Part shown: piece by piece, positions 5,402 through 46,083 of the stretch
Numbering within the stretch: position 1 is the stretch's first letter
Layout of the letters: every line of letters begins with the position of its first letter
Source of the DNA: an uncultured Collinsella sp.
GTDB lineage: Bacteria > Actinomycetota > Coriobacteriia > Coriobacteriales > Coriobacteriaceae
Direction of reading: 5' to 3'
DNA length: 64,000 bases
NCBI GenBank assembly: GCA_902496115.1
Contig: CABUZK010000007.1
Location: 2,256-66,255, forward strand
Notes under the pieces: generated by a model
Databases searched by the model: none
Told to the model about the DNA's origin: nothing
The model's input: the letters and a program-made list of their open reading frames with translations, nothing else
Program-made: the position numbers and the translations under genes

Positions 5402-5446
5402 ACGCGACCTCCTCGCTCTCGTCTTTTGCATCAGTATACCCAGTTT

Positions 5447-5486: not shown

Positions 5487-5514
5487 CATCACTACAACGA
5501 CAGGCGCGCTCGCC

Positions 5515-16181: not shown

Positions 16182-17285
16182 ATGTCCAAGCCGCGTCGTC
16201 GTAAGCAGAAAAAGCAGGTTAAGCCCGAGCTCAAGCTCAGGCAGTTTGCCGCCACCGAGCTTTCCGACCAGCTTGCCGCCCTTCCCTGCGCCATCGACCT
16301 GCCGCGCTTTATGGTCGACACGATTGCTGGCGCCTATACGCCTGCCGATGCCGAGCTCGTGATTGAGGGCTTTGGCGCCGCAGCCACGCGCCCGGTCACG
16401 CTGCGCGCCAACACGCTCAAGGCGACCGCCGAAGACATCGCCGCCGCGCTCGACGCAGCCGACATCGCCCACCGCCCCGTTGCCTGGTACCCGGATGCCT
16501 TCATCCTGCCCGAAGCCCAAGTTTCCGACCTGTGGGACCTCGACATCTACCGTGACGGCAAGATCTACCTGCAGAGTCTGTCGTCCATGATGCCTCCTTT
16601 GGTGCTGGGCGCGCAGGCCGGCGAGGATATCTTGGACATGTGCGCGGCCCCCGGCGGCAAGACGACGCAGATCGCCGCCCTCACCCAGGGCCAGGCGCAC
16701 CTCACCGCCTGCGAGATGAGCATTCCCCGCGCCGAAAAGCTCGAGGCCAACTTGGGCCGCCAGGGCGCCAAAAACGTGCCCGTCATGCGTATTGACGCGC
16801 GCGAGCTTGACGAGTTCTTCCGCTTTGACCGTATCCTGCTCGACGCCCCCTGTACCGGTACGGGCACCGTCATCAGCGGCAACGAGAAAAGTCTGCGCGG
16901 CCTTACCGAGCAGCTGCTCATTAAGTGTGCCCGCTCGCAGCGCGCGCTTCTGGACCGCGCCATGGGGGCCCTCAAACCGGGCGGCACGCTGGTCTATTCG
17001 ACGTGTTCGATCTTGCCGCAGGAAAACGAGGACGCCCTGCAAGAGGCCCTCGACAAGCACATGGACTGTGAGCTCATCCCCCTCGACGGCACGCCGAGTG
17101 AAAGTGAAGCGCGTCGCACACAGGATACCGGCGACAAGCCGCATATCGAGCGCAACGCCCTTACCGAAGCCATTGCCGCGGGTCACATCTCGGCCATTGC
17201 CAACGGCATGCCAGGCACGCTGACCATTCCGCCCAGTCGCGACTTTGAGGGCTTCTATATCGCCCTGGTCCGAAAACGCAGCTAG
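16182..17285 (+). CDS. RsmB/NOP-family SAM-dependent RNA (cytosine-C5) methyltransferase
   Basis: DMCAAPGGKTT, DRILLDAPCTGTG and GGTLVYSTCS motifs. Confidence 0.85.
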   Translation: MSKPRRRKQKKQVKPELKLRQFAATELSDQLAALPCAIDLPRFMVDTIAGAYTPADAELVIEGFGAAATRPVTLRANTLKATAEDIAAALDAADIAHRPVAWYPDAFILPEAQVSDLWDLDIYRDGKIYLQSLSSMMPPLVLGAQAGEDILDMCAAPGGKTTQIAALTQGQAHLTACEMSIPRAEKLEANLGRQGAKNVPVMRIDARELDEFFRFDRILLDAPCTGTGTVISGNEKSLRGLTEQLLIKCARSQRALLDRAMGALKPGGTLVYSTCSILPQENEDALQEALDKHMDCELIPLDGTPSESEARRTQDTGDKPHIERNALTEAIAAGHISAIANGMPGTLTIPPSRDFEGFYIALVRKRS

Positions 17286-17309
17286 CGCACGGATTCAAAA
17301 CTCAACAAG

Positions 17310-17480
17310 CTATCGCCGTGCGCACTTGTCCTGCTGGTCCTTATGCCGCGCAAGCGCTTCACGCTCCTTGCGCTCGGCCTTTTTGCCCTTAATGGCCGTA
17401 ACCACAAAGTAGATGACCGCGGCGGCAACGATTGCGCCCACGCATAGGCCAATCGAGCCCAACATTGCCGAAAATTCCAT
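17310..17480 (-). CDS. Small (56-aa) single-pass membrane protein; below the ORF-track cutoff
   Basis: My own translation is MEFSAMLGSIGLCVGAIVAAAVIYFVVTAIKGKKAERKEREALARHKDQQDKCARR. A GAGAGGTG RBS-like sequence lies upstream. One TM helix plus a basic tail. Confidence 0.5.
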   Translation of the reverse strand: MEFSAMLGSIGLCVGAIVAAAVIYFVVTAIKGKKAERKEREALARHKDQQDKCARR

Positions 17481-17672
17481 ACCGCGTCACCTCTCTTTTG
17501 CATACGGGACATTCAAGATAGCACCTCGATTCCCGCCACCACAGCTCCTTCACGTTCGCCGGCCCTTCAGTCTAACGGATGGCGCAGCGGGGAAAAATCA
17601 ACTCGTCAAACGATTTAGCACTCGCAACGCCGGTCGTACACTGCCGACCGCAGAACATAGAAATGGACCGCC

Positions 17673-18764
17673 ATGGATTCTCTCAACGATTTGAACGAGC
17701 GCGTCGACGCCTTTGTCGGCACCAGCTCCTTCGAGACGCCTGCCGCGACTAACGACCAAGCCCCCATCGATGTTCCCGCCGAGGTTCACGAGGACATCGT
17801 CGCCTCGGTCGACTTCTCCGAGGTTGAGCTTGCAGACGAATTTACCGAGCCCCAGGTGGCCGTAACTCCCAACGGCCTTTTGCCCATGGAGCCGCTGCCC
17901 ATCGACGGGCGCCTGCGCAAGGCGGCCCTCCGCATGCCCGATGAGATCGAAGAGGCCAGCGGCTTTACGCTCTTTGGCCGCCGCATCAAATCGCTCATCT
18001 ACACCACCGACGTGGCGGTCATCCGCAATTCCAATGCCGATGCCGTGTTTGCCGTCTACCCCTTCACGCCGCAGCCCGCCATTACGCAGGCGCTGCTGAC
18101 TGTTGCCGAGTGCCCGGTCTTTGTGGGCGTTGGCGGCGGCACCACCACCGGCAAGCGTTCCGTGCAGATGGCAGCCGTCTCCGAGATGCAGGGCGCGGCG
18201 GGCTGCGTGGTCAATTCCCCCGCCACTGCCGAGATGGTCGAGCACATCACCAACATCGCCGACATCCCCGTCATCGCCACGGTCGTTCGCTGCGACGACG
18301 ATGCTCACGCCAAGGTGCGCGCCGGAGCCAAGATCCTCAACATCGCGGCCGGCAAGAACACGCCGCAGGTCCTGCGTGAACTGCGCGAGCACTATCCCAA
18401 CCTGCCGCTCATCGCACCGGGCGGCAAGACGCCCGAGAGCATCCGTGAGACCATCGCTGCCGGCGCCAATGCCATCATCTGGACGCCGCCTTCGGCCCAG
18501 CAGTTGCAGACCGACATGATGCAGCGCTACCGCAAGATGAAGGAAGACGCCACGCCCGTCATCTCGCGCGACGATGTGCCCATTATCGACCAGGTCGCCG
18601 CCGCCGAGGTCAGCCAGGTCGAGAACATGAATCCCGATGTGCCGATCCCCGACGAAGTCATCGAACGCGTCGCTTCGATCCACGATCATATCGAGGAACG
18701 TCGCGCCAACCGCGGACTCAAGCCCTCGCTGCACGGCTTTTTCTTCCGCGGAAAGAAACGCTAG
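17673..18764 (+). CDS. Hypothetical protein: acidic N-terminal region plus alpha/beta (TIM-barrel-like) core
   Basis: 363-aa ORF with coding-like composition (FVGVGGGTTTGKRS, PLIAPGGKTPESI). No family recognised with certainty. Confidence 0.55.
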   Translation: MDSLNDLNERVDAFVGTSSFETPAATNDQAPIDVPAEVHEDIVASVDFSEVELADEFTEPQVAVTPNGLLPMEPLPIDGRLRKAALRMPDEIEEASGFTLFGRRIKSLIYTTDVAVIRNSNADAVFAVYPFTPQPAITQALLTVAECPVFVGVGGGTTTGKRSVQMAAVSEMQGAAGCVVNSPATAEMVEHITNIADIPVIATVVRCDDDAHAKVRAGAKILNIAAGKNTPQVLRELREHYPNLPLIAPGGKTPESIRETIAAGANAIIWTPPSAQQLQTDMMQRYRKMKEDATPVISRDDVPIIDQVAAAEVSQVENMNPDVPIPDEVIERVASIHDHIEERRANRGLKPSLHGFFFRGKKR

Positions 18765-18775
18765 CCGCAACAGCA

Positions 18776-18812
18776 AGGCCCGTCCCGCAAACAACGGGAC
18801 GGGCCTTTTTCT
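18776..18812. terminator. Rho-independent terminator (usable in both directions)
   Basis: AGGCCCGTCCCG-caaacaa-CGGGACGGGCCT followed by TTTTT. Confidence 0.8.
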
Positions 18813-18872
18813 GTTATCAAGTGTCAGGAGGGACAGGCGCAGCCGTTAAAACCGTCAGCCAGCCCACAAACG

Positions 18873-19763
18873 CTAATCCACGCGCTTGTCGCCCATAAAG
18901 AAGACGGCCACCGTGCCGGGGCCGGTATGCGAGCCAATCAGGGCACCGATGCTATTGATCTCAATCTTGCCTTTGAGCTGCGGAACCTGTTCCTCTATCA
19001 GTGCCGCAACGGCCTCGGCGTCCGCGCGGCACGCCGAGTGCGACATGATGCACTTGCCCGAATAGTTCGCGCCGTCCTGCACATGCGCCATCACGGTCTT
19101 GGCCATCTCGGAGATCGCGCGCTTCTTGGTGCGAATCTTCTCGCGTGGCGCCAGCTCACCTTCGCAATCGACCGTCATAAGCGGGCAAATCTTAAGCGCC
19201 GTGCCGATGATCGCGCTCGCGGCCGAAATGCGACCGCCGCGCAGGTAGCTCGACAAATCGGTCGAGAAGAACCAGTGGTGCAGGTTGAGTTTATGCTCCT
19301 CAATCCAAGCGGCCGTCTCGTCGAGCGAAGCGCCGCTATCGCGAACGTCGGCGGCACACTCCACCAGCAGGCCAAAGCCCGAAGACGCCGCCAGCGAATC
19401 GATGACGCGCACCTTACCGCCCCGGGGATAGCGATCCGCGAGCATCTGCGCCGCAACGCAGGCCGATCCATACGTGCCCGAAATACCCGACGACAGCGCC
19501 AGGTGCAGCACGTCTTTACCCTCGGCAACAAACGGCTCCCAAAACTCCTCGTACTCGCCCACGCTCACCTGAGACGTCTTGGGCATGGCGCCCGCGGCAA
19601 TCTGGGCAAAAAACTCGTCCGGCGTAATCGACTGATACAGATCGTCCGTATAGACAACATCGTCGATCTCGTAATGAAAACACACGACAGAAATATTGCG
19701 CGACGCAAAGAACTCACGGGTTCGATCGGCGGCGGATTCACAGGTCAGGACAAAATCACTCAT
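18873..19763 (-). CDS. DegV family protein (second paralog)
   Basis: ATG at 19763 after AAGGAG. MSDFVLTCESAAD... plus DegV-type core. The track ORF is over-extended to 19934. Confidence 0.85.
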   Translation of the reverse strand: MSDFVLTCESAADRTREFFASRNISVVCFHYEIDDVVYTDDLYQSITPDEFFAQIAAGAMPKTSQVSVGEYEEFWEPFVAEGKDVLHLALSSGISGTYGSACVAAQMLADRYPRGGKVRVIDSLAASSGFGLLVECAADVRDSGASLDETAAWIEEHKLNLHHWFFSTDLSSYLRGGRISAASAIIGTALKICPLMTVDCEGELAPREKIRTKKRAISEMAKTVMAHVQDGANYSGKCIMSHSACRADAEAVAALIEEQVPQLKGKIEINSIGALIGSHTGPGTVAVFFMGDKRVD

Positions 19764-21998: not shown

Positions 21999-22076
21999 CT
22001 CCACCCGCGGTGATTGGCTAAACTTGCTGAGTTTGTCATCCCCGCGGCGCTCCAGCGCCACCCTAAGGCAGGTACC

Positions 22077-22472
22077 ATGCAAAAGCTCCTTGCGCAGATC
22101 ATGAAGTTTGGCGTCGTCGGCGTCGTCGCCACGGTCATCGACTTTGGCATCATGAATCTGCTCCACTATGGCCTGGGCCTTAATATCCTGATCGCCAATA
22201 CCAGCGGCTTTATCGTCTCGCTCATCTTTAACTACGTCGCGAGCATGAAGTACGTGTTTGCGCACAAGGAGGGCATGAGCCGCCGCCGCGAGTTCATTAT
22301 CTTTGTCGTGCTGTCCGTGATCGGCTTGGCTCTCAACGACGGTATCGTGCTGGCGCTCAACGCCGGCCTGGGGCTCGAGGCCAATATCGCCAAGATTTGC
22401 GCCACCGCGCTTGTTATGGTCTACAACTTTGTGACCCGAAAGATCTTCCTGGAGGGCGACGAGACCAAGTAG
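22077..22472 (+). CDS. GtrA-family membrane protein
   Basis: MQKLLAQIMKFGVVGVVATVIDFG... with 4 TM segments. Confidence 0.8.
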   Translation: MQKLLAQIMKFGVVGVVATVIDFGIMNLLHYGLGLNILIANTSGFIVSLIFNYVASMKYVFAHKEGMSRRREFIIFVVLSVIGLALNDGIVLALNAGLGLEANIAKICATALVMVYNFVTRKIFLEGDETK

Positions 22473-22691
22473 CTCGACTTTCCCGCACAGCTACGGGGCC
22501 CACGGATGACGCACGTCGAGCACTGCGTTGTTCGTGGGCCTTGCTCGTTTACGGGAAGATTTGCAACGTTTGCGGATTACCTCTTGAATATTTGGCGAGT
22601 TCGTATAGTTCTTGGCAAAGCCCTTACGTTTCCCTTGCAAAAGCTCTAAAGTATCCTCTGCTCGATTCGTCAACGCATTGGATGTGATTAC

Positions 22692-23099
22692 GTGCGCAAG
22701 GCACTGGCACAACCTCATACCAAGCAGTTCCTCAAGTTCGCTGTCGTGGGTCTTATCTCCTTTGGCATCGACTGGGGTATGCTCATTGCACTCGTCGAGC
22801 TGTTCCACCTCGACTTTTTGATGAGCACCACGATCTCGTTTATCACGTCCGTCATTGTCAACTACTGGCTCAGCATGAAGTACGTGTTCGACCATCGCGA
22901 GGGCATGAGCCGCAAGCGCGAGTTCACGATCTTCACCATCCTGTCGGTGATCGGTTTGGGCCTCAACGACCTGTACATGTTTGTGGGCGTCACGTTTTTG
23001 AGCATCGGCTACCAGGCCATGAAGGCCATCGCCACATTCTTGGTCACCTGGTACAACTACTTTAGCCGCCGCTTCTTCCTCGAGGGCGCGCAGTCGTAG
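22692..23099 (+). CDS. GtrA-family membrane protein (paralog)
   Basis: GTG start. FLKFAVVGLISFGIDWG..., and NYWLSMKYVFDHREGMSRKREF parallels the upstream paralog. Confidence 0.8.
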   Translation: MRKALAQPHTKQFLKFAVVGLISFGIDWGMLIALVELFHLDFLMSTTISFITSVIVNYWLSMKYVFDHREGMSRKREFTIFTILSVIGLGLNDLYMFVGVTFLSIGYQAMKAIATFLVTWYNYFSRRFFLEGAQS

Positions 23100-23125
23100 T
23101 TTGTTCGACATTTGCTTGAAGGTAT

Positions 23126-23161
23126 AACCGGTTGGAATTCTCGTTCCAACCGGTTTTTTTG
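23126..23161 (+). terminator. Rho-independent terminator
   Basis: AACCGGTTGGAA-ttctcg-TTCCAACCGGTT followed by TTTTTT. Confidence 0.85.
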
Positions 23162-23259
23162 TTTGCCGAGAGACCGGGCGACCCAGTCCTCTACGCATGA
23201 AAAACGGGCGGCCCGGATGTTTGTCCGAACCGCCCGTTTGACGTGTTATGTCGAGGCAT

Positions 23260-24129
23260 TTAGCCCGTTACGTAATACCAGACGACACTGTCGCCGTTGG
23301 ATAAGACATAGTTACTGCACGCCGTCATGGGCGTTACGCCGTTAACGGAGTACATCCAGCCACTCGTGCCGCCGTGCTCCTTCTCGGCCAAACCGCCAAT
23401 AGCGGCGACATACGTGCCATACGACGAGCCGTGCGCATTCACGGAAAGGCCCAGGGCGCACAGGGCATCGTAGACCGTAGCACCCTCGTTGAAGGTGAAG
23501 GTACCGCCAGAAGACACAGGATTGCCTACGGCGCTCGATGTGACCGAAACCGTCACCGTGACGTAGCCAGACTGCTGCGAGCCGTCCTGATTGCCCGCAG
23601 AGGCGCCGCCACTGTTGGATGCAGACCCACCGCCAGACACCGAGCCACCGCCCGAAGAAGAGCCGTCAGAAGAACTCGATCCACCAGCGGATTCGGAGCC
23701 CTGTCCGGCAGACGTGTTGTTGGACTTCTTGCCACCCTTGCCTTCGGACTTCTTCTCCTTCGAATCCTTTTTTGAGTCCTTCGACCCGTCCTTCGCATTG
23801 TCCGAAGATTTGGAGTCCTTGGGCGCAGCCTTGCCCGAAGCGGTAATCGAGCCGGAAACCGACGCATCCTTGGCAACGACGCTCTCCCCTGTCACAGCCC
23901 GCGCAATCCAGTCGATGGACCATGCACCGCTGACAGAGGGGTGGACAAAACCCAACGAGACGACAATGAGTCCAATACAGGCAGCCGTCAGGGTGCCAAC
24001 AAGTGCCTTGCGCCGCGGGGCGGACGCCGCCGAAGCGGCGCCCTTTTGCTTTGTATCGTCAAGCTGGATGAACGACGAGTCGGGCTGCTTGGACTCGGCG
24101 TCCTGTGGCTTATTGGACACAGCCCTCAC
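23260..24129 (-). CDS. Membrane-anchored DUF4430-like protein (Ser/Gly-rich linker plus C-terminal DUF4430 module)
   Basis: GTG start directly after the stop of the giant gene (TAG|GTG). N-terminal TM segment. The C-terminus ...GGTSGWMYSVNGVTPMTACSNYVLSNGDSVVWYY is the same module type repeated in the upstream gene. Confidence 0.75.
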   Translation of the reverse strand: MRAVSNKPQDAESKQPDSSFIQLDDTKQKGAASAASAPRRKALVGTLTAACIGLIVVSLGFVHPSVSGAWSIDWIARAVTGESVVAKDASVSGSITASGKAAPKDSKSSDNAKDGSKDSKKDSKEKKSEGKGGKKSNNTSAGQGSESAGGSSSSDGSSSGGGSVSGGGSASNSGGASAGNQDGSQQSGYVTVTVSVTSSAVGNPVSSGGTFTFNEGATVYDALCALGLSVNAHGSSYGTYVAAIGGLAEKEHGGTSGWMYSVNGVTPMTACSNYVLSNGDSVVWYYVTG

Positions 24130-27100
24130 CTACCGACGCTTGGTAAACACGAACACGCCGATGACGGCGAGACCGATCACGCCGGCCGCTACGCCGACAA
24201 TGGCAAGCGGATTGAAGCCGGACTCCTGTGCCGGAGCCGCAGCGGGCTTCTTGGCAGTGGCCGCAGCAGACGAGCCCGTGTCGGACTTGGAGCTGGACTT
24301 GCTGGACTTCTTATCGGACTTCTTATCCTTCTTTTTGGAATCCTTACCGTCCTTGGACTTGGTCGTGGTCGACGACACAGGCTTCTGACCCGGAGCAACA
24401 GCGCCGCCAGCCTGCTGGCCGTTTGTGCCGTTACCGGAGCCAGAACCAGCACCGACATTACCCGAGCCGCTATTGGAGCCAGAGCCACCGTTACCGCCAG
24501 GGTTAACGGCATTCTTGGTCCACTTGGCATAGAGCGTCATATCGGCCGTCACGACGTCCTTGGCGAAGTCCCACTTCTCGCCTTCGGCGGTGTACCAGCC
24601 GAGGAACGTATATCCGTCGCGGGTTGGGGCAGCCGGCTCGGAAACCATCTTGTTCTTGGCAACATAACGCGGTGCGACGTACGAACCGCCCTGTACATCG
24701 AACGCAACTCTCCAGGACTCGGCACCCGCTAGCTTAAAGAGGCGTCCCGAGTCATTGGCGTAGTACAGGTTGCCCTTCTCATCACAGATGATAGAAGCGG
24801 TGCAGTATTCACGATACTTTGCGTCGGGCGTGAATATCATTTGCGCCGCATCGTCGCCCAGTTTATAAGCGTAAACGCCACCGGGCAGAGCGTTGCAGGT
24901 GAAGTACACGTACGTGTCGTTACCTTGAACCGAGACGAGTGGGGTACTCTTGGACTCGCCCTTGTCTGCGCGGATGCTCTTTTTAACGCTCATAGTGCTC
25001 AGATCGATGACAGAGAGTGTTCCGTAACCCTCGATGTCCATACCGCAGACATACGCCAGGCCGTTGCTCACTGCCGGCGTAGAGGTGGAGATGGCCGCGA
25101 AGGCAACGGGCTTGCCCTCGAGGGTCAGCTTGTCCCCGCTGCGACGAATCTTGTAGAGCGTTCCGTTATCGCGGGAGACCGCGAGATACGTGCCGTCGCC
25201 GTTCTCGCCAACCTCGACGGCAATGATGCCGGAGCGAACGGGCGTGCCTACGCTTACGCTCGAGAGCTCTTTGCCGTTGGAGCCATCAATGAGGGCAACC
25301 TTACCGGACTCGTTACCGATGATGATGTCGTCACCGGAGGCCGCAGCGCCCGCCCAGTAGTAGCCCTCGTTCTCGTTGGTCTCGGACTTCTTTTTGTCTG
25401 TTGTCCAGTCCACTTTGCCGGAAGCCAGGTCAACGCACACGAGCGCACCTTCTGAACCGTCGACAACAGTGAAGCCTGCGTAGGCCTTGCCGCCGGAGAT
25501 GGTCACGGACGTGAGAGCTTGGGTATCTTTGATCCCGAGCGAAGGGGTCTTGTATCGACAGGCTATCGAGTACTGCCCATCCTTCTTGTCCAGAACAAAA
25601 ATGCCGAGCGAGCCGTCCTCAAAAGGAACAACCAGATAGCCGTCTTTATAGGCGGGACGGCAGAAGTAGCCAATGTTCGCGCCAATAGAGCAGCTCGCAA
25701 GCTCCTTCTTTCCGGTTTCAGAATCTATGAGCACAATGCGGTTGCCCTTAACCGCGCAAATATTACCGTCGATAATGAGCAAGTCCGAAACGCCTTTTGC
25801 ATCGCCCTTGATATCCGCGGGCTCATCCCACGCAGATTCAGCCGCACCAGACGGAGTCGGCACTTCGGCAACCGAGCCATTGACTTTGCCGCCGGCAAAC
25901 GCAGGCCAGGCAGAGTCGAAGTTAGACTTAGGCGCGTTGGGGTCGGTCGTGAGGGCATCGGGGTCAGGCAGCTTGTCGCCAGCCGTATAGACCCAGGCGA
26001 TAGACTTCGCGTCCTTCAGCTGGACGCTGCCCGCGCCCAAATCGGAAGGCTTGCCATCGATAAAGAGCTTCCAGTAAGCCCCAGTCGTGGAGTCCCATGC
26101 GAGCGTTCGCTCATCAAACGGCGATGTAATTGAGTTGAGGAACCAGCCCCATGTACCCGTACCATAATCCGCAGAGATGCCACTCTGCTTGAAGGCAAGT
26201 TCAGTCGCATCAGCCACGGTCGCGGTATCAACCATGGTGTAGTCAGCTGCAGGCGCCCACGTCTGAACATTACCGCCGCTGTCAACACCGATAATCTGCA
26301 GGGAAGCCTTTGTCTGCCCAGGGATAGTACCGTCAGAGCCGTAGACCCAGGAAACTTTGTCACCGGCCTTGAGCGTGTAGTTACCGGCGCCCACATTTGC
26401 GAGCTTGCCGTTGACAAAGAACTGCCAGTAATTCCAAGTGGAAGCGTCAACCTTTTCGGTCGAGAGCTTTACGTCCTCATCAAACGGAGAGGTGAGCGAG
26501 TTGAGGTACCAGCCGTAGGAGCCCGTCCCGGTGTCGGCGCCAATGCCAGCCTGCTTGAACACCTGCTCAGAGAGCTCAGCCGCGGTCGAGCCCTCCTTCA
26601 CTTGGATAGTCGTGGGCTGAGCCCAGGTCTGCTGGCTACCGTCCTTAGCCTGGCCAACAACCTCGCAGCTCACGGAGAGCTGGTCGGTGGGCGCCGGGTC
26701 GCCGTACTTGGAGTAGCACCAGACGACCGAGTCGCCGGCCTCGAGCACGTAGCCGCCCGCACCAACCGATGCGGCCGTGCCGTTGATGAAGAGCTGCCAG
26801 TACGCTCCGGTCTGCGAATCATAGCCAAGCGTTCGGCCCGCGTCGACAGGCGAGGTGATGGAATTGAGGTACCAGCCCCAGGTTCCCATGCCGTAATCGG
26901 CGGTGAGGCCGTGCTTCTTGAAGAGCGCCTCAGAGAGGTCGGCGGCGGTAGACCCCGTTTTTAACGTGTACGGCTCGGCGGCGGTCCAGGTCTGCTGGTT
27001 GCCATCGGCATCGATGCCGATAACCGAGCATGTTGCTGTAACCTCAGGAGCGACCTGACCACTCGTTCCAAGCACGGTCACTGTCGCAGAGACGTCCTGG

Positions 27101-30100
27101 TTGGCGAGCTTTGCGTACGTGGCATTATCCGGATAGCGCTTGGCGTAACGCGCGTACTTCTCACTGGAAAGGCGAGAAGTAATGGTGACCTTGGTGTTGT
27201 ACTCAGGCTGCGTGACAAGAAGGTTCTCCGCAGAGACGACACCAGTGTCGCTCGACTTGAAGAGGCGCCACTGCTGGCCGCTCATGTCGTCGTAGCCCTC
27301 GAGCTCAACCGGGACGATGCCCGAGCCCGCAGCGTCGGTAGACGCCTTGTCGTAGCTCCACGCGAGCTTACCATCGGCGTCGAGATACGCCTTCTGGAAG
27401 GCATGCATATTTGCGGTCACGCCGGCGGCGTCCTGGCCGTCGAGGATGGCCTCGGCGTAGCCCGCCTTGGCGGCCTCCATGAGCTTAAGCTCATTGTCGA
27501 GGTCGGCCTGATCCTGCGGCGCAACCGTGAAGTCAAGCGTCTTTGTGGCAGTGACCTCAGCGTTGTTCTTATCCGTAACCGTGCAGGTGAGTTTCGTGGA
27601 GACGGCGCTCTTACCGGCCTCGGGACGGAAGACCGTGCCCTTATAGCCGTTGAAGGTCACGTCATCGGTGCTCGCGGAGTACTCGACCTTATAGTATTTT
27701 CCGTCGACGCCGAGCGTGCTCGTGCGCGGCATCTGGAGGTCATCGGTCAGGCCGTCCTTATTGGCAACCGCATCGGTACCGGAGTACTTGATGTTGTTGT
27801 AAATAAACGCCGCGTCGACCTTCTCCTGCAGCGCCTTCTTGTCGGCAGCAACCTTCTCGGGGTCGCCCTTGACGGTCACGGTGAAGTCGTGCGAGCCCTC
27901 GACATCGCTCGGGCCACCGCTCACAAACGAAACCGTCGCGGTCAGCGTAACAGCGCGATCGCTCGAAACGCGCGTCACCTTGCCGGTGTAGTCGTCCCAG
28001 CCATAACCGGACGGCCAAATGACATCGCCGTCGGAGCTCTTCCAGCTAACCTCGAACTTGTTCTTGGAACCCGCGCGGTACGGAAGCGTGAGGTTGGACG
28101 TAACGGACTCGGCCGAATCGCCCGCAGCGTAACCGATCGCAATCTGCTCGGCGGCATCGTCGAGCATCTGCTGAACGCGGGCCTCGTCCCAAGCAACCTG
28201 CACCGACTTGTTGGGCTGGTAGTACTCAGTCTTGCCATCGCGCGACAGCTCAAACACAACATCGGCGCCACGCAGACCGTCGATGTTGTAACCGGTATAG
28301 TCGTTGGGGTCAATGAAGAAGAAGGTCACATCGCCGTTGGTCTTATCCTGAGCGTCGGAGATACCGACCGTGGCTTTGTCATCCTCTGCATTAAAGGCAA
28401 CGCCGCCCTCGGAGACCTTGACGTCAATATCGGTAAATCCCAGATCGGCAAGCTGCGCCTTCAGCGCGTCATTGACGTTGCCGCCCTTAGCGCTGTAATC
28501 AACGGCGATCTGTTTATTGGCATCGTTGAGCTTTTGGACTGCAGCCTCAAGCGAGCCTGCGGCGATAACCTTGTTGGTGGAGACGAGCTCGACCGTCGAG
28601 CTTCCGCTCGTGGCGACAGCCTTCAGACACTTGCCAGCAGCAGATGCCGAGACCGTCGCCTCGGCGCCCGACATATCGGACAGCAGCGTCCAGTCGGCCG
28701 CGGGAGCCTTCGCGTCGTCGGCCGCATACCAAGCAACAGTCGCCTGACCGGTGACGTCGATACCGTTAGTGGCCGAACCGTCGGCGCGCTTGGCCTGCGC
28801 CGTCGCCTTAACGCTATCGCCCGCGACGAGATGGGTCGAATCGCTATTGATCTGCGGCGCAGTGGTCACACGCAGCAGGTTATACTCCCCCGCCGCGGTA
28901 ACGCTATCGGGCGAAACCCACTCAACGGTGTTATCGAGCGCGCTCGCGGTGACCTTGATCTTCTTGCCGACAAGCGCATCCGTAATAGTCAGGCTGCCAT
29001 CAGTCGTATCGACGCCGTCGGTGAGCTCGGTCCAATCGGTACCGTTCTCGCTCGCGTACCACGCCATGGTGAGGTCGGCATCATCGGGCACGTCCTTGGT
29101 CGAGCCCGACCAAGGACCCGGAACCTGCACGCTCGGTGTGATCTTTGAACCCACGCTCAGCGTAACGTTCTTATCGGCAAGCTCAATGCCCGCCAGCTTG
29201 TACTGGCCCTTAAGCGTCACGGGGCCAAGCGGAGCAACAGACTGCGTGCCGCCGGAGGAGCTCTTCTTCTGCGTGCTGAAAACGGTATTTTCGCTCGTCA
29301 CCTTTACGCGCAGATACTTGCCGGCATAGGCGGCGTCAACGGTATAGGTGGCCTCGGTAGCACCGGGGATATCGGTGTAAGCGGAGTCGAAGCTCGAGCT
29401 ACTATTTGCATACTGCCACTGGTAGGTCACATTATCGGTGCGGTCGATATAGCTGTACTTCGAGCCGTCCTTTTTGCGCACCTTGGTCTTGAGCTTATCG
29501 CCCACGTGCACGCCGTTGGTGGCAGGAGAGCCCTCAAACTGCACGTCGTAAAGCTCAACCTGACCCGCAACCGAGACAGGACCTGCCGCATAGTAGGGCT
29601 TCTCCTCGCCATAGCCGCCATTGGCCTTAGCCACGACGTAGTAGCCCTTAAGGGCGGCGGTCACCGTCAGGGTGTTACCGGTCTCACCCTCGATAGGCGT
29701 GTTGCACGAGCTCGCGTATTTCGCGGTGCCCTTATACCACTGCCACGTGACATGCGAATCGGTGGTAACGTCGGTGGAACCCGCCTTGGCGGTCGCCGTA
29801 ATCGTGGAGCCAACCTCGACTTTGCCCGAAGTCGGGCTCATAGTCACGCTCGAGACATTAATTGAACCCGCGGCTGCAACGAGAGCGCCCGTCGAGTTGG
29901 TCGTGCTCGAAGAGCCGATCTTCGAAGACACCTTGCACTTGAGGTACTTGCCGCCCAAAGCATCGGTTAGCTCGAGGGTCTCACCCGTGGCACCCGCAAT
30001 GTCGATATACTTGCCACTCTTGGTGCCAGAGCACTGCCACTGATAGTTGAGCTTGCTCGCGTCGATAAACGTCGAGGCGCCCTTCTCCTTGGCGCGAGCC

Positions 30101-31290
30101 TGGGCGGTATCGCCAACCGCGAACACGGAGTTGTTGGTCTTGGGATTGATGAGCGAAACCGCGTAGACGTCCACCGCACCGGCCTGTTTGACCTTGTTGG
30201 AGGTGGTCTTGCTCACCGTATTTACGCCAGCAGTAGCCTCGACTCTGATGTACTTGCCCTCGAGGTCATCGGTCACCGTGAGGGAAGCGCCCGTCTCGCC
30301 CTCGATCTTGGTAAAGCCCGAGTACTGCGAGGTAGATGCGGACCAGGTGTAGGTGACCTTGGCGTCGGAGCCCGCGGGGCTCGACCAATCCTTGTACGGC
30401 GTCGCCATCAGAGTATCGCCTATGCTCGGCGCGTCGCTACTCAGCTTGACGCTGTAAAGCTCCATTTGGCCGGCGCCCAGCACGGGGCCGGGGATGCTGT
30501 TAGGATTAATGCCCGAGCCGTACGAAACAGAGGGGCCGTAGTGGTCCTTGCCGTCTGCCGTCACCTTGCAGATGAAGTATTTGCCCTCCATCGCGTCAGT
30601 GATGGTGAGCGACTGCTCGTGGCCTACGACCTCAGTGTAATCGGCGGCGTCGCTGCTGGCCTTGACCGTGCCGGCGAGCCAGGTATAGGTCCAGGCGCCG
30701 GGGTTAGCGACCGATTTGGTCTCGGTCGTAGGGTCGCCCCAGTAGTCCTCGGTCTCGACCTCATCGTACATATTGGCCCAGAGCGTATCACCCACATTGA
30801 GCGCGCCGGACTTCGTCGAATACGAGTTGTCCTTATCCTTGGCGTCCTGGATATAGACCTTAGCCTCGCTCGAAAGCGTTGTAGCGGACGCAGCGGCAAC
30901 GGCGTTCTTCCGCTCCGAAGCAACGGGCGCCGCCGCAGGGTTCTCGGACTCAGTCGCGTTGTCTGCGGCGGTGTCAGCACCATTCGCGCCGCTCGCAGTT
31001 GCGCCCTGATCTGCGCCGGCGCCATCGGCAGCAGCGCTCGCCGCCGCACCGTTCGCGCCGGTGTCGGCAGCAGTGTCATCGTTGGCCGCCGCGCCCTCGC
31101 CGCCCGTTGCGGCCTGAGCAACGGCATCGGCAATGCCCTCGGCGCCCTCGGCCCAAAGTTGCGCCGGCGTAGTGCCAAAAGCCATGGCAAAAGCCAGGAA
31201 CGCCACCAGACCGCGCTTGGCTACGCCACGGGCAATCGCTCCATGGCGACGCCACGAGGCGCGCTGGCTCTCGTCCTCAAACATATCCAT
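24130..31290 (-). CDS. Giant (2,386-aa) cell-surface protein: signal peptide, ~9 Ig-like repeats, 3 DUF4430-like modules, beta-propeller, Listeria/Bacteroides-type repeat, Gly/Ser-Lys linker, C-terminal TM anchor
   Basis: ATG at 31290 after AGGAGA. Signal-like RGLVAFLAFAMAFGTTPAQLWA. Repeats with the Y.W...G.TG..L.VTDAL.GKY motif lie at ~28700-30900. Three DUF4430-like modules (W.WYLNS.TSP...YW.LF..G...G...Y.L..GD...W.Y) lie at ~25960-27045. PQQ-like beta-propeller blades lie at ~24800-25900. GYTFLGWYT... lies at ~24530-24720. The tail is IVGVAAGVIGLAVIGVFVFTKRR. Confidence 0.85.
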   Translation of the reverse strand: MDMFEDESQRASWRRHGAIARGVAKRGLVAFLAFAMAFGTTPAQLWAEGAEGIADAVAQAATGGEGAAANDDTAADTGANGAAASAAADGAGADQGATASGANGADTAADNATESENPAAAPVASERKNAVAAASATTLSSEAKVYIQDAKDKDNSYSTKSGALNVGDTLWANMYDEVETEDYWGDPTTETKSVANPGAWTYTWLAGTVKASSDAADYTEVVGHEQSLTITDAMEGKYFICKVTADGKDHYGPSVSYGSGINPNSIPGPVLGAGQMELYSVKLSSDAPSIGDTLMATPYKDWSSPAGSDAKVTYTWSASTSQYSGFTKIEGETGASLTVTDDLEGKYIRVEATAGVNTVSKTTSNKVKQAGAVDVYAVSLINPKTNNSVFAVGDTAQARAKEKGASTFIDASKLNYQWQCSGTKSGKYIDIAGATGETLELTDALGGKYLKCKVSSKIGSSSTTNSTGALVAAAGSINVSSVTMSPTSGKVEVGSTITATAKAGSTDVTTDSHVTWQWYKGTAKYASSCNTPIEGETGNTLTVTAALKGYYVVAKANGGYGEEKPYYAAGPVSVAGQVELYDVQFEGSPATNGVHVGDKLKTKVRKKDGSKYSYIDRTDNVTYQWQYANSSSSFDSAYTDIPGATEATYTVDAAYAGKYLRVKVTSENTVFSTQKKSSSGGTQSVAPLGPVTLKGQYKLAGIELADKNVTLSVGSKITPSVQVPGPWSGSTKDVPDDADLTMAWYASENGTDWTELTDGVDTTDGSLTITDALVGKKIKVTASALDNTVEWVSPDSVTAAGEYNLLRVTTAPQINSDSTHLVAGDSVKATAQAKRADGSATNGIDVTGQATVAWYAADDAKAPAADWTLLSDMSGAEATVSASAAGKCLKAVATSGSSTVELVSTNKVIAAGSLEAAVQKLNDANKQIAVDYSAKGGNVNDALKAQLADLGFTDIDVKVSEGGVAFNAEDDKATVGISDAQDKTNGDVTFFFIDPNDYTGYNIDGLRGADVVFELSRDGKTEYYQPNKSVQVAWDEARVQQMLDDAAEQIAIGYAAGDSAESVTSNLTLPYRAGSKNKFEVSWKSSDGDVIWPSGYGWDDYTGKVTRVSSDRAVTLTATVSFVSGGPSDVEGSHDFTVTVKGDPEKVAADKKALQEKVDAAFIYNNIKYSGTDAVANKDGLTDDLQMPRTSTLGVDGKYYKVEYSASTDDVTFNGYKGTVFRPEAGKSAVSTKLTCTVTDKNNAEVTATKTLDFTVAPQDQADLDNELKLMEAAKAGYAEAILDGQDAAGVTANMHAFQKAYLDADGKLAWSYDKASTDAAGSGIVPVELEGYDDMSGQQWRLFKSSDTGVVSAENLLVTQPEYNTKVTITSRLSSEKYARYAKRYPDNATYAKLANQDVSATVTVLGTSGQVAPEVTATCSVIGIDADGNQQTWTAAEPYTLKTGSTAADLSEALFKKHGLTADYGMGTWGWYLNSITSPVDAGRTLGYDSQTGAYWQLFINGTAASVGAGGYVLEAGDSVVWCYSKYGDPAPTDQLSVSCEVVGQAKDGSQQTWAQPTTIQVKEGSTAAELSEQVFKQAGIGADTGTGSYGWYLNSLTSPFDEDVKLSTEKVDASTWNYWQFFVNGKLANVGAGNYTLKAGDKVSWVYGSDGTIPGQTKASLQIIGVDSGGNVQTWAPAADYTMVDTATVADATELAFKQSGISADYGTGTWGWFLNSITSPFDERTLAWDSTTGAYWKLFIDGKPSDLGAGSVQLKDAKSIAWVYTAGDKLPDPDALTTDPNAPKSNFDSAWPAFAGGKVNGSVAEVPTPSGAAESAWDEPADIKGDAKGVSDLLIIDGNICAVKGNRIVLIDSETGKKELASCSIGANIGYFCRPAYKDGYLVVPFEDGSLGIFVLDKKDGQYSIACRYKTPSLGIKDTQALTSVTISGGKAYAGFTVVDGSEGALVCVDLASGKVDWTTDKKKSETNENEGYYWAGAAASGDDIIIGNESGKVALIDGSNGKELSSVSVGTPVRSGIIAVEVGENGDGTYLAVSRDNGTLYKIRRSGDKLTLEGKPVAFAAISTSTPAVSNGLAYVCGMDIEGYGTLSVIDLSTMSVKKSIRADKGESKSTPLVSVQGNDTYVYFTCNALPGGVYAYKLGDDAAQMIFTPDAKYREYCTASIICDEKGNLYYANDSGRLFKLAGAESWRVAFDVQGGSYVAPRYVAKNKMVSEPAAPTRDGYTFLGWYTAEGEKWDFAKDVVTADMTLYAKWTKNAVNPGGNGGSGSNSGSGNVGAGSGSGNGTNGQQAGGAVAPGQKPVSSTTTKSKDGKDSKKKDKKSDKKSSKSSSKSDTGSSAAATAKKPAAAPAQESGFNPLAIVGVAAGVIGLAVIGVFVFTKRR

Positions 31291-31429
31291 TTGTCTCCTA
31301 CTGTCTGCACTTGGAGCATTGCCCAGCGGCTGCCCCACGTCATCGCGCACATTGCGCTCGAGTACCCCCATCGGGGTCCCCCTTCCCTCCAGAGCCCAAC
31401 GCGTACCGGCGGCATGCGCCGCGGCCGCG

Positions 31430-31607
31430 TACAAGATGGGAGGCGATCCGACTTAACCTTACCGACCCGGGCGCGCCGTCCGATCTGCGACGCGACCATC
31501 CCGGGCCAAGAGGAATTACGGTTACTGGTACAGCCGGGGACTTGCACCCCGATTCTCCCAAACGCGCAGGAAAACCACGCATTCGTGCGTCTCCGCACCA
31601 CCATCTA
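31430..31607 (-). promoter_or_regulatory. Cobalamin (B12) riboswitch in the leader of the giant surface-protein operon
   Basis: Minus strand: GGGAGAATCGGGGTGCAAGTCCCCGGCTGTACCAGTAACCGTAA (31559-31516) fits the conserved cobalamin-riboswitch core. AAGTCGGATCGCCTCCC (31454-31438) sits at the B12-box position. A TTGACA-16 nt-TAGATG promoter lies at 31629-31602. Confidence 0.75.
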
Positions 31608-31721
31608 GGCCATCGATTATTACTGTCAATATGGTAGCACGCAAAAGGGCCCCGCACACAGGCGAAGCCCAAGGTAAAAGCTATGGTTTGCGATAGGAGA
31701 ATGCGGTGACGGTCACGGCCT

Positions 31722-33485
31722 CTAACGCTTGCCGCCGTGGCTGTTGCGCCAAATCTCGCGGCCCAGCATCAGCGCCAGCACCAGCGCACTCACGTAGCCC
31801 ATAAAGCCAATGACCGGGATACCGAACACAACCGGCTCGATGCGCGCGTAGTACACCACCGACGAACCGATAAACAGGCCGGCGATCACAATTGCCATCG
31901 ACATGCGGTCGATAATTCCACCCAGCTGCCGCAGCGCCTTATCGCTGCTCATGATCTGCGTGTTCACCTTAAGCTGGCCGCGCGTGAGCATGCGCGACGC
32001 CAAGCCCAGATACTCGGCCGCCTCGAGCGAGCCTTTTGCCGCGCGATAGCTGCTCGCGGCAAGATCGCGCCCCATTTCGCGGACGCGCGCATAGGTGCTC
32101 TTCTCGTTTTTGATATGCGTCTGGATAATCTGAATCATGTTGACGTTGGGCATGTACTCGGTCAGCAGGCCCTCAAGCGTCACCATGCCGCGGGCGAACA
32201 TCGTCACCACGCTCGGCAGCTCAACGTCGTTTTTGCGCGCCAAATTTAGCAGCGAGGTCAAAAACTCGCCGATATCAAGATCCTTAAGGTCAAGACCCGC
32301 AAAGTCGGCGACGATAAAGTCCAGGTCGGACAAAAACGCCGAATGGTCGAGCTCGGCCGAATCGCCGCGCGTCACGGCAAAGCGCATGAGCGAATCCTTG
32401 AGCTTGGGCACGTCGCCCTCGGCCACGGCGAAAATCATGTCCTTGACGATACCGCGGTCATGGCTCGACATACGCCCGACCATGCCCAGGTCAATAAAGT
32501 AGACGATGCCGTCCTTGAGGATGATGTTTCCCGCATGCGGGTCGGCATGGAAAAAGCCGTCATCGAGCACCTGCGTCGAGTAGTCCTCGACAATCGCCGA
32601 GCCGATCTTTTCCAGGTCATAGCCCTCGGCCACCAGGCGCTCGGGATCGGCAATCGAGATGCCGTCGATGTAGTCCATAACCACGACGTGTTCGGTGCAA
32701 AGGTCCAAGTAGGATTTGGGACACGACACGCCATGCACGCTTTTGTGGAACTCATAGAAATCGTTGAGGTTTTTGGCCTCGGCCAAAAAGTTGGTCTCCT
32801 CGCGAAACGAGGTCCACAGCTCCTCGACCACGCCGTGCAGGTCAACAAACTGATCGGTGTTGACGAACTTGGAAACGATGCGCACCACCGAACGGATGAT
32901 GTCGATATCCTGCGCCATGACCTGTTGCGCGCCGGGGCGCTGTACCTTAACGGCCACGTCCTCGCCGGTCACCAGACGGGCGCGGTGCACCTGCGCAAGC
33001 GACGCGCTACCGAGCGGGTTGGGGTCGATCGCGTCGAACATCTGCCCCAGGCGCTGGCCGTATTCCTCTTCCAGACAGCGGAGCACTACCTCATACGGCA
33101 CCGGCTCTACGTCGGAGCGCAAGCGGCGCAGCTCGTCGCAAAACCGTTGCGGCAAAATCTCGGAGCGGTTAGCCAGGATCTGCCCCATCTTGACGAACAT
33201 GGGGCCAAGCTCTTCGAGCAGGCGGCGCAGGCGTACCGGCGTAAGGTTATCCCATACGCGGTACTTCTTGATCAGGCGAACGATCTGCCCAATGCGTTCG
33301 CGGCGGCCTGCCGGCGTGAGCTGGTATTCCTCGTCCGGCGCCATCGCGTCGGGCTCCTCAGGAACCATATCGACAGCACGCGGCTTCTTGCGAGCGCCCG
33401 AGACGGCGGCATCGACCTCATCGACAACCGCCGCCTCGTCACCCAAGGGATCTAGATTGTTGTAGTCGGTGGTGGAATCTGCCAT
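31722..33485 (-). CDS. ABC1/UbiB-family atypical kinase with C-terminal TM segments
   Basis: 587 aa with LGPMFVKMGQILANRSEILP, the ABC1 signature, and HADPHAGNI. Confidence 0.88.
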   Translation of the reverse strand: MADSTTDYNNLDPLGDEAAVVDEVDAAVSGARKKPRAVDMVPEEPDAMAPDEEYQLTPAGRRERIGQIVRLIKKYRVWDNLTPVRLRRLLEELGPMFVKMGQILANRSEILPQRFCDELRRLRSDVEPVPYEVVLRCLEEEYGQRLGQMFDAIDPNPLGSASLAQVHRARLVTGEDVAVKVQRPGAQQVMAQDIDIIRSVVRIVSKFVNTDQFVDLHGVVEELWTSFREETNFLAEAKNLNDFYEFHKSVHGVSCPKSYLDLCTEHVVVMDYIDGISIADPERLVAEGYDLEKIGSAIVEDYSTQVLDDGFFHADPHAGNIILKDGIVYFIDLGMVGRMSSHDRGIVKDMIFAVAEGDVPKLKDSLMRFAVTRGDSAELDHSAFLSDLDFIVADFAGLDLKDLDIGEFLTSLLNLARKNDVELPSVVTMFARGMVTLEGLLTEYMPNVNMIQIIQTHIKNEKSTYARVREMGRDLAASSYRAAKGSLEAAEYLGLASRMLTRGQLKVNTQIMSSDKALRQLGGIIDRMSMAIVIAGLFIGSSVVYYARIEPVVFGIPVIGFMGYVSALVLALMLGREIWRNSHGGKR

Positions 33486-44705: not shown

Positions 44706-45441
44706 AGGTTTGATTGCCCGTTAGATCGATACTGTTCCAAACCATGGGATGGGTAGGATGTCTCCCACCGCGTCCTGTGAGGTAAAATCTTGACTGCCGC
44801 GGAATCCGCCTGCGGGCAACGCTCCGATCTCCGATTGGGGTGAAGCCTATGAACTTGTTTCTTGAAATCCTGCGCCTCTCGATGTATGTGACCGGCATTG
44901 CCCGGAACCTCTACTCGATCTGGCGGGAATATAAGCAGTAACGGATAGCGAAGGGAGTCATGAAAAGGGCCGGTTGCAGCCGGCCCTTTAGACGATAATA
45001 CCTGCGTTGCCCGCGCTTCCGAAGTGTGACTAGCTGAGGAGCGGGTTCCGCGGCACAACCTGATTTTACCCAGCGAGGCGGATCTTTTGCAGCCGCTCCA
45101 CCGTTTATTTACATCTACCAACATCGGGATCTAAAACCAAAAGTTTGCGCCCCGAATGGACAGAAAGGAGCGAGATTACGGAGAAGAAGTTGGACAATCG
45201 AGGTTCGGCTTGGAGTCTACATAGCATATGCTAGGAAAATGATGGAGAGGGTCAGGGCACTGCGCGGCGTTGGGCTCACTATCCTGGAGATAACCGAGGC
45301 GCCAGATAGAGCGGCGACGCTTTTCGGGACATTTCCCAGACTTCTCGAGAGGCAATCGCTACCTCAACTCGGCATAAATAGTTCGCCCCGGGGGACAGCC
45401 GAAGAGCCCTTTTTACGGCCACCTTTCATGACGGACAAAAG

Positions 45442-45900: not shown

Positions 45901-46083
45901 ATCTTTCGACCCCCAAGGGAGCGGAGCTAAAGCCATCCCGCCGTCTAAGCCACTCCCCGGACTTGCCCAGGCACTCGCAGCCCTCCATGCTCGTCAGAAC
46001 GTGACGCTCTACCCTGTCCTCTAGCGTGTCGAGTCACATCGTGACGAGACGGTTCGGCCGCCTGACTTCATCCTCGGACAGGC

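Follow-up and report, generated by a model that had tools for sequence, protein, structure and literature searches.

In the gut, the community is shaped by competition for vitamin B12 and its analogues, whose capture at the cell surface has been worked out in Bacteroides only; for Gram-positive bacteria, a 2026 review calls extracellular cobamide capture 'entirely uncharacterized' (PMC13616437). Here we analysed a 64,000-nucleotide (nt) stretch of DNA (the window, whose positions serve as coordinates) from an uncultured Collinsella sp. (Coriobacteriaceae, Actinomycetota), a genus abundant in the human gut. On its minus strand lies a two-gene operon that encodes a giant surface protein and a small partner with four DUF4430 modules in total, preceded by a leader RNA of the cobalamin-riboswitch clan. 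In our judgement this operon is probably the extracellular corrinoid-capture arm of a B12 uptake system of the energy-coupling factor (ECF)–CbrT type, under a cobalamin riboswitch, in monoderm gut Collinsella. An earlier reading of the same DNA, made from its letters alone (the sequence-only reading), had proposed a surface B12-capture apparatus; its observations are largely confirmed, with promoter, start codon and topology corrected, and its interpretation is supported in part.

The closest described precedent is the work of Burroughs, Balaji, Iyer & Aravind (2007; PMC1796856), who defined a transcobalamin-like clade of SLBB (soluble-ligand-binding beta-grasp) domains and predicted surface proteins that scavenge B12, so that an apparatus of this kind is not without precedent. 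Their proteins have the same DUF4430 domain, signal peptides or anchors, and fusions to immunoglobulin-like (Ig) and beta-propeller domains as those in the window; a second SLBB paralogue encoded in the operon and CbiO/CbiQ-type (ECF) neighbours are further features shared with the window or its relatives. That study was computational only, dealt mainly with low-GC Gram-positives, planctomycetes and archaea, and made no mention of riboswitches. The window differs in its Coriobacteriia host, in having three tandem modules within a protein of ~2,400 amino acids (aa), in its cobalamin riboswitch and in the detachment of the transporter genes, and its relatives encode an S component that resembles CbrT.

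In the mammalian carriers transcobalamin (TC), haptocorrin and intrinsic factor (IF), the C-terminal beta-domain has the fold of the DUF4430 module (TM-score 0.6–0.75), with a weak sequence likeness around ..YW.L..G....GAG.Y....G at only 12–19% identity; unlike these carriers, the Collinsella modules are tandem, membrane-anchored and propeller-fused, and lack an alpha/alpha-toroid alpha-domain. Among Gram-positive bacteria, the multi-module wall receptors of the Isd/NEAT relay pass heme, a tetrapyrrole, from one paralogous domain to the next, on to a binder tethered to the membrane and finally to an importer. This parallel is an analogy only, since NEAT is an unrelated domain and that relay uses sortase anchors and a canonical ATP-binding cassette (ABC) importer; a similar transfer here is a proposal. 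The BtuJ/BtuH/BtuG–BtuB system of Bacteroides (PMC13616437) is likewise a riboswitch-controlled, multi-protein apparatus for surface cobamide capture in a gut commensal; it feeds a transporter, and one of its components is a propeller. Its folds are unrelated to those in the window: BtuJ is a jelly roll (DUF4465) and BtuG is seven-bladed and itself binds B12. The relay, moreover, operates at an outer membrane with a TonB-dependent transporter.

The importer side is represented by ECF-CbrT of Lactobacillus delbrueckii (PDB 6FNP), a dedicated cobalamin/cobinamide importer for which hemin is no competitor (PMC5997447) and which resembles the S components that two relatives of the window encode downstream of their DUF4430 gene pair. 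ECF transporters are defined as lacking extracytoplasmic binding proteins, and no accessory binders have been described for L. delbrueckii CbrT. In the L. sakei operon lsa1836–1840, as in the loci of the relatives, ECF S, AA′ and T components are encoded together with an extracellular protein of DUF4430 type, which is proposed to pass a tetrapyrrole on to the S component; the operon differs in that the claimed ligand is heme, a separate TC-alpha-like protein is present, there is no propeller and no riboswitch is reported. Our literature search, outside which most subscription-journal papers fell, returned no experimental corrinoid binding by a bacterial DUF4430 and no description of the riboswitch link, the P6-insertion variant, the CbrT-type partner, the occurrence in Coriobacteriia, the tri-modular giant or the mosaic binding cassette.

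A cobalamin-clan aptamer in the operon leader

A leader of ~250–330 nt separates the terminator of the upstream kinase gene from the giant open reading frame (ORF). The riboswitch core noted there by the sequence-only reading (GGGAGAATCGGGGTGCAAGTCCCCGGCTGTACCAGTAACCGTAA, 31559–31516, minus strand) and a B12-box-like element (AAGTCGGATCGCCTCCC, 31454–31438) are both present, and they form part of a cobalamin-clan aptamer at 31434–31613 (minus strand) identified by an AdoCbl-II match, a minimum free energy (MFE) fold and compensatory changes across lineages. Rfam at gathering threshold reported a Collinsella-1 RNA alone and no riboswitch match in the window. A targeted scan placed AdoCbl-II (RF01689, clan CL00101) first, with 30.5 bits against a cut-off of 36.5 (E 3.3e-5), short of the curated gathering score for a cobalamin riboswitch. 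RF00174 had been put forward as the model with which to check the leader: a cobalamin-clan match was obtained, but RF00174 was not the best model and its score was sub-threshold, below that of AdoCbl-II, so that it was removed by the clan filter, which keeps the best family per clan. The low score arises because the B12 box of the model aligned onto a look-alike within a hairpin of ~62 nt inserted into P6. Unlike the compact AdoCbl-II model, the aptamers of this family carry a lineage-specific P6 hairpin of 41–65 nt that costs score, and RF00174 falls lower still.

The conserved core is nevertheless complete, comprising J3/4 GGGA(A/G)AA, the P4 loop GGUGNAANUCC, GCUG..CCAG, AACNGUAA and the B12 box AGUCNGGA...CC. 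Its nucleotides, at 31559–31516 and 31454–31438, are constant in 56 distinct Collinsella leaders and in six lineages. A degenerate pattern of this core matched once in the window against none expected (100 shuffles), and once in each related locus, in every case upstream of the big gene. The aptamer has the canonical architecture: the 5′ strand of P1, a 5′ GNRA hairpin, P2, P3 (GGGAG/CUCCC) and P4 (CGGGG–UGCAAGU–CCCCG) are followed by P5/L5 (UGU–ACCA–GUA), P6 (CCG/CGG) with its inserted hairpin, the B12 box and the 3′ strand of P1 (CCAUCU). Folded without constraints, 31432–31600 reproduces this layout from the GNRA hairpin to the B12 box at −73.2 kcal/mol (MFE). The B12 box AAGUCGGAUCGCCUCCC (31438–31454, minus strand) consists of the P6 3′ strand CGG, J6/3 and the P3 3′ strand; it is unchanged among the 56 Collinsella leaders, its AGUCGGA is unchanged among six lineages, and it is similar to what we take to be the E. 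coli btuB element, AAGCCCGAAGACCUGCC. Riboswitches of clan CL00101 share with the leader the GGGAG-AAU J3/4, the P4 loop, P5/L5, AACCGUAA, AGUCGGA..CC and a four-way junction, as well as a location in the 5′ leader of B12-uptake-type genes. The 56 leaders are 98% identical, and the proposed structure is 99.8% paired on them. P1 and P3 were preferred over a helix found by RNAalifold (22–27/177–182), in which promoter-proximal bases pair with the ribosome-binding site.

Counting the Collinsella of the window, seven Coriobacteriia lineages have this aptamer directly ahead of their homologous genes. The C. acetigenes leader (locus L061) scored 31.3 bits with AdoCbl-II (E 2e-5), and those of Slackia equolifaciens (L081; 39.3 bits) and of locus L084 (43.8 bits) exceeded the 36.5 cut-off, so that the gathering score is reached in two of the seven lineages examined; L082/L085, L083 and L086 also have the aptamer upstream of their homologous genes. 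Six lineages were aligned by hand for a comparison of structure, and the aptamer core is identical in all of them. On this alignment of only six lineages, covariation supports the P1–P6 helices. L083 has two compensatory changes in P4, with G-C for C-G at one pair and A-U for G-C at another; P5 varies among G-U, A-U and G-C at its middle pair, which defines L5 as NCCA. P1 pairs (N)GAUGG with the CCAUC(N′) that follows the B12 box, the strands being AGAUGG/CCAUCU in the leader of the window and, in L086, CGAUGG/CCAUCG. From lineage to lineage, hairpins of unrelated sequence (41–63 nt) take the place of P2 and of the P6 extension, and each P6-extension hairpin is more stable than its own shuffles. 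The apical loop of the P6 insertion (window ~31476–31486, minus strand), GCAGAUCGG (GCGAAUCGG in Slackia), is kept in four lineages above wholly different stems and may make a tertiary contact. In L014, a further homologous locus, no aptamer was found in the leader, and a tRNA-like T-arm upstream of its gene is not a tRNA by ARAGORN.

Clan match, architecture and cross-lineage aptamers together bear out the assignment of the leader to the cobalamin-clan riboswitches. By comparative sequence analysis, it is a structured cobalamin-clan RNA, conserved in several genera ahead of this gene family, with a predicted response to ligand.

Start codon and expression platform

The −10 box proposed by the sequence-only reading, TAGATG (31607–31602), does not stand: it lacks the invariant final T, was not called by a promoter scan and sits within the 5′ strand of P1. 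Because (N)GAUGG is conserved across genera as the P1 partner of CCAUC(N′), TAGATG is better read as an RNA element, which places the promoter further upstream; TAATAAT (31619–31613) is a candidate −10.

All six lineages have a block GC(C/U)CUGGA..AAGG that contains a strong Shine–Dalgarno (SD) sequence, followed 8–12 nt later by ATG or GTG. Based on this conserved block and spacing, the true start of the giant gene is probably ATG 31371, in frame and 27 codons upstream of ATG 31290. The ~140 nt of GC-rich hairpins earlier described before the ribosome-binding site thus resolve into an expression platform of ~65 nt and early coding sequence. In the platform (31372–31433, minus strand), a GC-rich hairpin precedes the conserved GCUCUGGAGGGAAGGGGGA block, which holds the putative L13 CUGG and the SD. 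Substitutions in the 27 codons (31371–31290) show no bias to synonymous changes, which fits a loosely constrained region ahead of the signal peptide overlaid by RNA constraints. Public gene calls give the giant protein 2384 aa (P0001), implying ATG 31284, and would be 29 residues short if translation starts at 31371.

At its 5′ edge the SD carries CUGG, the complement of CCA(G) in L5. Kissing-loop cobalamin riboswitches have reportedly been described by Johnson et al. in 2012. By analogy, sufficient intracellular B12 would stabilize the aptamer and a loop–loop contact between L5 (NCCA) and the putative L13 (CUGG) at the SD edge; this contact would block translation initiation at ATG 31371, switching the operon OFF. 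A different kissing loop, pairing GUACC of L5 with GGUAC (alignment columns 217–221 or 258–262), was rejected, being broken by substitutions and absent in other lineages.

A giant anchored protein and its tethered partner

The giant gene (24130–31371, minus strand) encodes 2,413 aa if translated from ATG 31371 (2,386 aa if from ATG 31290) and is joined TAG then GTG, at once, to the gene for a 289-aa partner (23260–24129, minus strand); both ORFs and their junction are as first described. The two proteins are secreted and membrane-anchored, and together they carry four copies of the transcobalamin-beta fold.

The giant protein begins with a signal peptide and an Ala/Gly-rich segment. These are followed by about seven tandem repeats of ~105 aa (28501–30822, minus strand; residues ~157–930), detected by internal BLAST, which form an Ig-like stalk. 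The repeats, with the motif Y.W......Y..I.G....(Y/L).(V/L)(T/..)D..GK(Y/..)I.(V/C)KV.A, match no Pfam family up to E 10, and the unit is probably an undescribed Ig-like stalk repeat. A middle region (27076–28500) holds two aBig_2 (atrophied bacterial Ig) domains (PF20578, E 2e-20). Next come three tandem DUF4430, or transcobalamin-beta-like (SLBB), modules (25957–27075; residues 1406–1778) and an eight-bladed beta-propeller of the BamB/PQQ_2 type (24706–25905; residues ~1796–2195). A Flg_new (Listeria–Bacteroides) repeat (24523–24708) matches PF09479 at E 4e-17 and an internalin B repeat in the PDB at E 4e-7. The C terminus (24136–24507, all minus strand), delimited by hydropathy, composition and motif scan, consists of a low-complexity Ser/Gly/Lys-rich spacer, which is probably wall-spanning, a transmembrane helix (residues 2358–2385) and TKRR.

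A motif scan for [LIV]PX[TSA]G found no LPXTG sortase anchor in the giant protein. With a C-terminal transmembrane anchor and no LPXTG, the DUF4430 modules and propeller are placed close to the membrane. The topology is therefore the opposite of the wall-distal arrangement first suggested, with the modules near the anchor and ~1,400 residues of Ig-like stalk beyond them. The small partner has an N-terminal transmembrane helix (residues 41–67), a Ser/Gly/Lys-rich tether and a C-terminal DUF4430 (23269–23484; PF14478, E 1.2e-18).

Orthologues of the giant gene occur in 80 Collinsella-group loci (L001–L080), from Collinsella genomes and metagenome-assembled genomes. A homologue search with the full giant protein gave only orthologues at 97–100% identity, and the diversity came from a genome scan and a query with a distant representative. 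The small gene follows the giant gene in ~70 Collinsella loci, and also in L014 and L081–L086; the second gene of Slackia (302 aa, unannotated) ends in a DUF4430 too (hhalign probability 98.2%).

Among the Collinsella loci the C-terminal cassette (24706–27075, minus strand) is mosaic. Identity of the propeller to that of the window is bimodal at the aa level, with 26 loci at 90–100% and ~50 loci at 30–39%, and the three DUF4430 modules are either 60–69% or more than 90% identical; across the same loci identity remains at 85–99% for the leader, for the N-terminal repeats and for the flanking kinase gene. This pattern suggests recombinational allelic replacement, or diversifying selection on the ligand-binding part.

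Transcobalamin-like modules and an eight-bladed propeller

Pfam finds three DUF4430 domains in the giant protein (PF14478, 115.9 bits, E 1e-33) and one in the small protein (67.8 bits), well over the cut-off of 23.8, which agrees with the four copies of one module counted by the sequence-only reading. The three modules of the giant protein are 40–53% identical to one another. An AlphaFold (AF2) model of module 3, built with 42 homologous modules, reached a pLDDT of 96.9 and a pTM of 0.89. When this model was compared with the PDB by Foldseek, 19 matches had E≤1e-3 (probability 1.00, TM-score 0.55–0.75) and all others had E>0.04. Ranks 1–17 were beta-domains of transcobalamin, haptocorrin and intrinsic factor (E 6e-6 to 2e-4), and ranks 18–19 were 3U7Z, a DUF4430 structure from R. 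gnavus. The first-ranked match is the isolated human TC beta-domain with cyanocobalamin; we take this structure, PDB 5NP4, to show that the isolated domain binds cobalamin. A sequence profile of the module searched against the PDB listed the haptocorrin beta-domain first (E 0.023), and TC and IF as well. The module thus passes the PF14478 gathering score and, in the model, has a beta-grasp fold that superposes on the beta-domains of TC, IF and haptocorrin, as the kinship to eukaryotic cobalamin carriers proposed earlier would have it.

The PQQ-like propeller that had been recognized in the giant protein is likewise there, matching PQQ_2/BamB at E 7.6e-11, above the cut-off when scanned alone. 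Its AF2 model (pLDDT 90.7, pTM 0.90) retrieved BamB, PQQ alcohol dehydrogenase and YxaL from E 1e-13, all of the eight-bladed type; a search of the PDB with the propeller sequence returned the Flg_new repeat as its sole match. The comparison with BtuG that the sequence-only reading had called for gave no support to a BtuG-type propeller, which is rejected: the propeller has eight blades, not seven, and BtuG is absent from its top 50 PDB fold matches.

ECF transporter genes in relatives

The segment of DUF4430 modules plus propeller has 307 relatives with E<1e-30 among clusters at 50% identity, and the minimal form of the family (~780 aa) consists of DUF4430, propeller, and Flg_new or SLH. We inspected the neighbourhoods of seven homologous loci outside the Collinsella set (L014 and L081–L086), which represent six distinct lineages. 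In five of the seven (L014, L081, L083, L084 and L086), the big gene and the small DUF4430 gene are followed, in this order and in one operon, by genes for an EcfT-like protein, a fused EcfAA′ and an S component that matches DUF6580/ECF_trnsprt in Pfam; in L014 an Abi_2 gene is inserted into this order. The S components of L014 and L083 have essentially one PDB relative, chain A of 6FNP (E 2e-8 and 3e-4), that is, ECF-CbrT. L082 and L085, which belong to one lineage, have the gene pair only, with no transporter nearby, as in the window.

An ECF-CbrT uptake locus (EcfT, EcfA/A′ and a CbrT-like S gene beside the binding-protein genes) is not found in the part of the window that was scanned (8052–45936), and the capture genes of this Collinsella lineage stand apart from those for a transporter. 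The absence of a transporter had been taken as the mark of a stand-alone harvester; because the gene pair of relatives joins an ECF-CbrT-type operon, the operon is better read as a detached capture arm. A homologue search with the L014 S component gave top matches from Atopobiaceae throughout, so that Collinsella genes could be masked.

The gene call in L084 is truncated, a DUF4430 module being encoded upstream of the called start and the riboswitch further upstream. At 9908–22725 of L014 (CAKUIF010000001.1, labelled uncultured Olsenella sp.), the cassette of three DUF4430 modules and propeller is 94–96% identical to that of the window at the aa level; the N-terminus, leader and small partner differ. 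Its ECF module is closest to Atopobiaceae (Paratractidigestivibacter, Olsenella and Thermophilibacter), and Abi_2 and GmrSD genes lie nearby; the locus could reflect cross-family transfer of the cassette or a chimeric assembly. In L083, a convergent cluster of Peripla_BP_2, ABC ATPase and FecCD genes (16366–18982; a BtuFCD/siderophore-type importer) adjoins the operon of DUF4430 and ECF-CbrT-like genes, which puts two importers of B12 or chelate type side by side.

Proposed mechanism and competing explanations

A cobalamin-clan aptamer, four transcobalamin-beta folds at the cell surface and the conserved linkage to CbrT-like ECF genes in relatives are three independent lines of evidence that point to corrinoid capture for an ECF-CbrT-type importer. 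Surface corrinoid capture, as first proposed, remains the best reading, now with an aptamer above the Rfam cut-off in two relatives and operons that run into CbrT-like ECF genes. In the mechanism that we propose, cobamides or cobinamide would be bound by the DUF4430 modules at the wall or just beyond it. From them the small protein, on its flexible Ser/Gly/Lys linker, would take the ligand over and present it to a CbrT-like S component, which in this lineage would be encoded elsewhere, and the propeller may serve as a docking scaffold or contribute a second face to the binding site. Although it has synthesis genes, C. aerofaciens is reported to depend on B12 for growth (PMC6593275).

Several points weigh against this proposal. 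The window aptamer falls below every Rfam gathering score. Within Collinsella alone, covariation amounts to one compensatory pair and does not exceed that of shuffles, the variation among leaders that are 98% identical being too low. At 96–99% nt identity the leader is only modestly above the flanking kinase gene, and since that gene is itself 92–96% identical we dropped the argument that the leader is far more conserved than its protein; the low identity of the giant protein is due to its hypervariable C-terminal cassette. The proposed L5–L13 contact comprises only 3–4 invariant base pairs, and the P3 3′ strand CUCCC is complementary to the SD GGAGGG, so an ON switch is possible in principle. 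Mammalian carriers require an alpha-domain as well as a beta-domain for tight binding, and no alpha/alpha toroid is present in the operon proteins. A Pfam scan of the window proteins, which covered ~37 kb (8052–45936), and tblastn found no ECF, BtuFCD or B12-dependent gene in that part. Last, the L. sakei ECF-like operon lsa1836–1840, with its TC-beta-like and TC-alpha-like extracellular proteins, has been tied experimentally to heme uptake (bioRxiv 10.1101/864751).

The missing transporter, both in the window and near L082/L085, would also suit proteins that hoard B12 at the surface, against neighbours or by stripping host intrinsic factor or haptocorrin, or that are induced by B12 through an ON switch of the P3–SD kind, and that feed no importer. 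Three tandem modules suggest capacity, not hand-over, and BtuJ-loaded vesicles of Bacteroides act as reservoirs (PMC13616437). We nonetheless hold this to be unlikely, given that five of the seven contexts outside Collinsella (six lineages) are joined to a complete ECF-CbrT-type operon and that the small DUF4430 protein, on its tether, has the look of a shuttle. The known cobalamin riboswitches that control uptake genes are, moreover, OFF switches, which counts against induction by B12.

The heme result in L. sakei raises the question of the ligand. DUF4430 might be a general macrocycle binder and the apparatus might capture another tetrapyrrole (heme, or a corrin or porphyrin precursor), with the riboswitch coupling tetrapyrrole economy to B12 status. 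Some SLBB proteins may indeed scavenge other metabolites (Burroughs 2007; PMC1796856), and C. aerofaciens may lack precorrin-2 synthesis (PMC6593275). Three observations make such a ligand quite improbable: in seven lineages the operon has a cobalamin-clan aptamer ahead of it, the S components linked to it are similar to CbrT, where hemin does not compete with B12, and the close fold matches of the DUF4430 module are all B12 carriers.

That the giant is mainly an adhesin or host-interaction protein, with DUF4430 structural or glycan-binding and the leader a riboswitch-like relic, appears very unlikely, even though Ig-like or aBig repeats, which have no link to B12, make up ~1,400 of its ~2,400 residues, Flg_new matches an internalin B repeat, the C-terminal cassette is hypervariable between strains as surface antigens are, BamB-type propellers are protein-interaction scaffolds and the SLBB superfamily includes sugar-binding members (PMC1796856), because the minimal unit conserved over the 307 clusters is DUF4430 plus propeller rather than the stalk, the ECF-CbrT linkage is conserved, and the invariant core with compensatory changes across genera argues against a relic.

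If this reading of the operon as capture arm of an ECF-CbrT-type importer holds, ECF transporters can work with accessory binding proteins, and the modules are a bacterial counterpart, and a possible ancestor, of the beta-domain of transcobalamin and intrinsic factor working alone; a cobalamin riboswitch variant would also be recognized that Rfam thresholds miss in most of these genomes. The locus and its relatives supply a concrete, widespread and testable candidate, made up of riboswitch, propeller–DUF4430 receptor, tethered DUF4430 shuttle and ECF-CbrT-type importer. With rather less than even confidence, we extend this to Coriobacteriia and possibly other monoderms at large: an extracellular cobamide relay would lead from a propeller-bearing multi-module receptor through a tethered single-module shuttle to the ECF-CbrT S component, giving an ECF transporter dedicated extracytoplasmic binders against the definition of its class. 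The divergent, recombining cassettes would then reflect different cobamide specificities or an arms race, and the bacterial modules, which lack an alpha-domain, would be ancestral to the beta-domain of the animal carriers.

Genomic surroundings

The upstream neighbour of the leader is a gene for an ABC1/UbiB-type kinase (31722–33485, minus strand), with its terminator at 31670–31647 (minus strand). The operon ends at an intrinsic terminator read from the sequence (23200–23236, minus strand), a 7-bp GC stem with inner pairs followed by TTTTT. Two tandem genes for GtrA/DPMS-family membrane proteins (22014–22472 and 22692–23099, plus strand), with a terminator at 23126–23155 (plus strand), converge on it. 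This terminator and the convergent GtrA genes downstream delimit a stand-alone operon of two genes. A 235-aa ORF at 22491–23198 (minus strand) was discarded as spurious, the two plus-strand GtrA genes being the real genes there.

Two further structured RNAs were recorded. A lysine riboswitch (RF00168, 69.4 bits) lies at 5379–5551 (minus strand) of L061, ~4 kb upstream of the C. acetigenes locus, and is unrelated to the operon. In the window, the Collinsella-1 RNA (RF01700), a structured RNA to which no function is assigned, is full-length at 44967–45160 (minus strand; 167.7 bits, E 4e-44) and lies upstream of an ORF for a HicB-like antitoxin (45442–45936).

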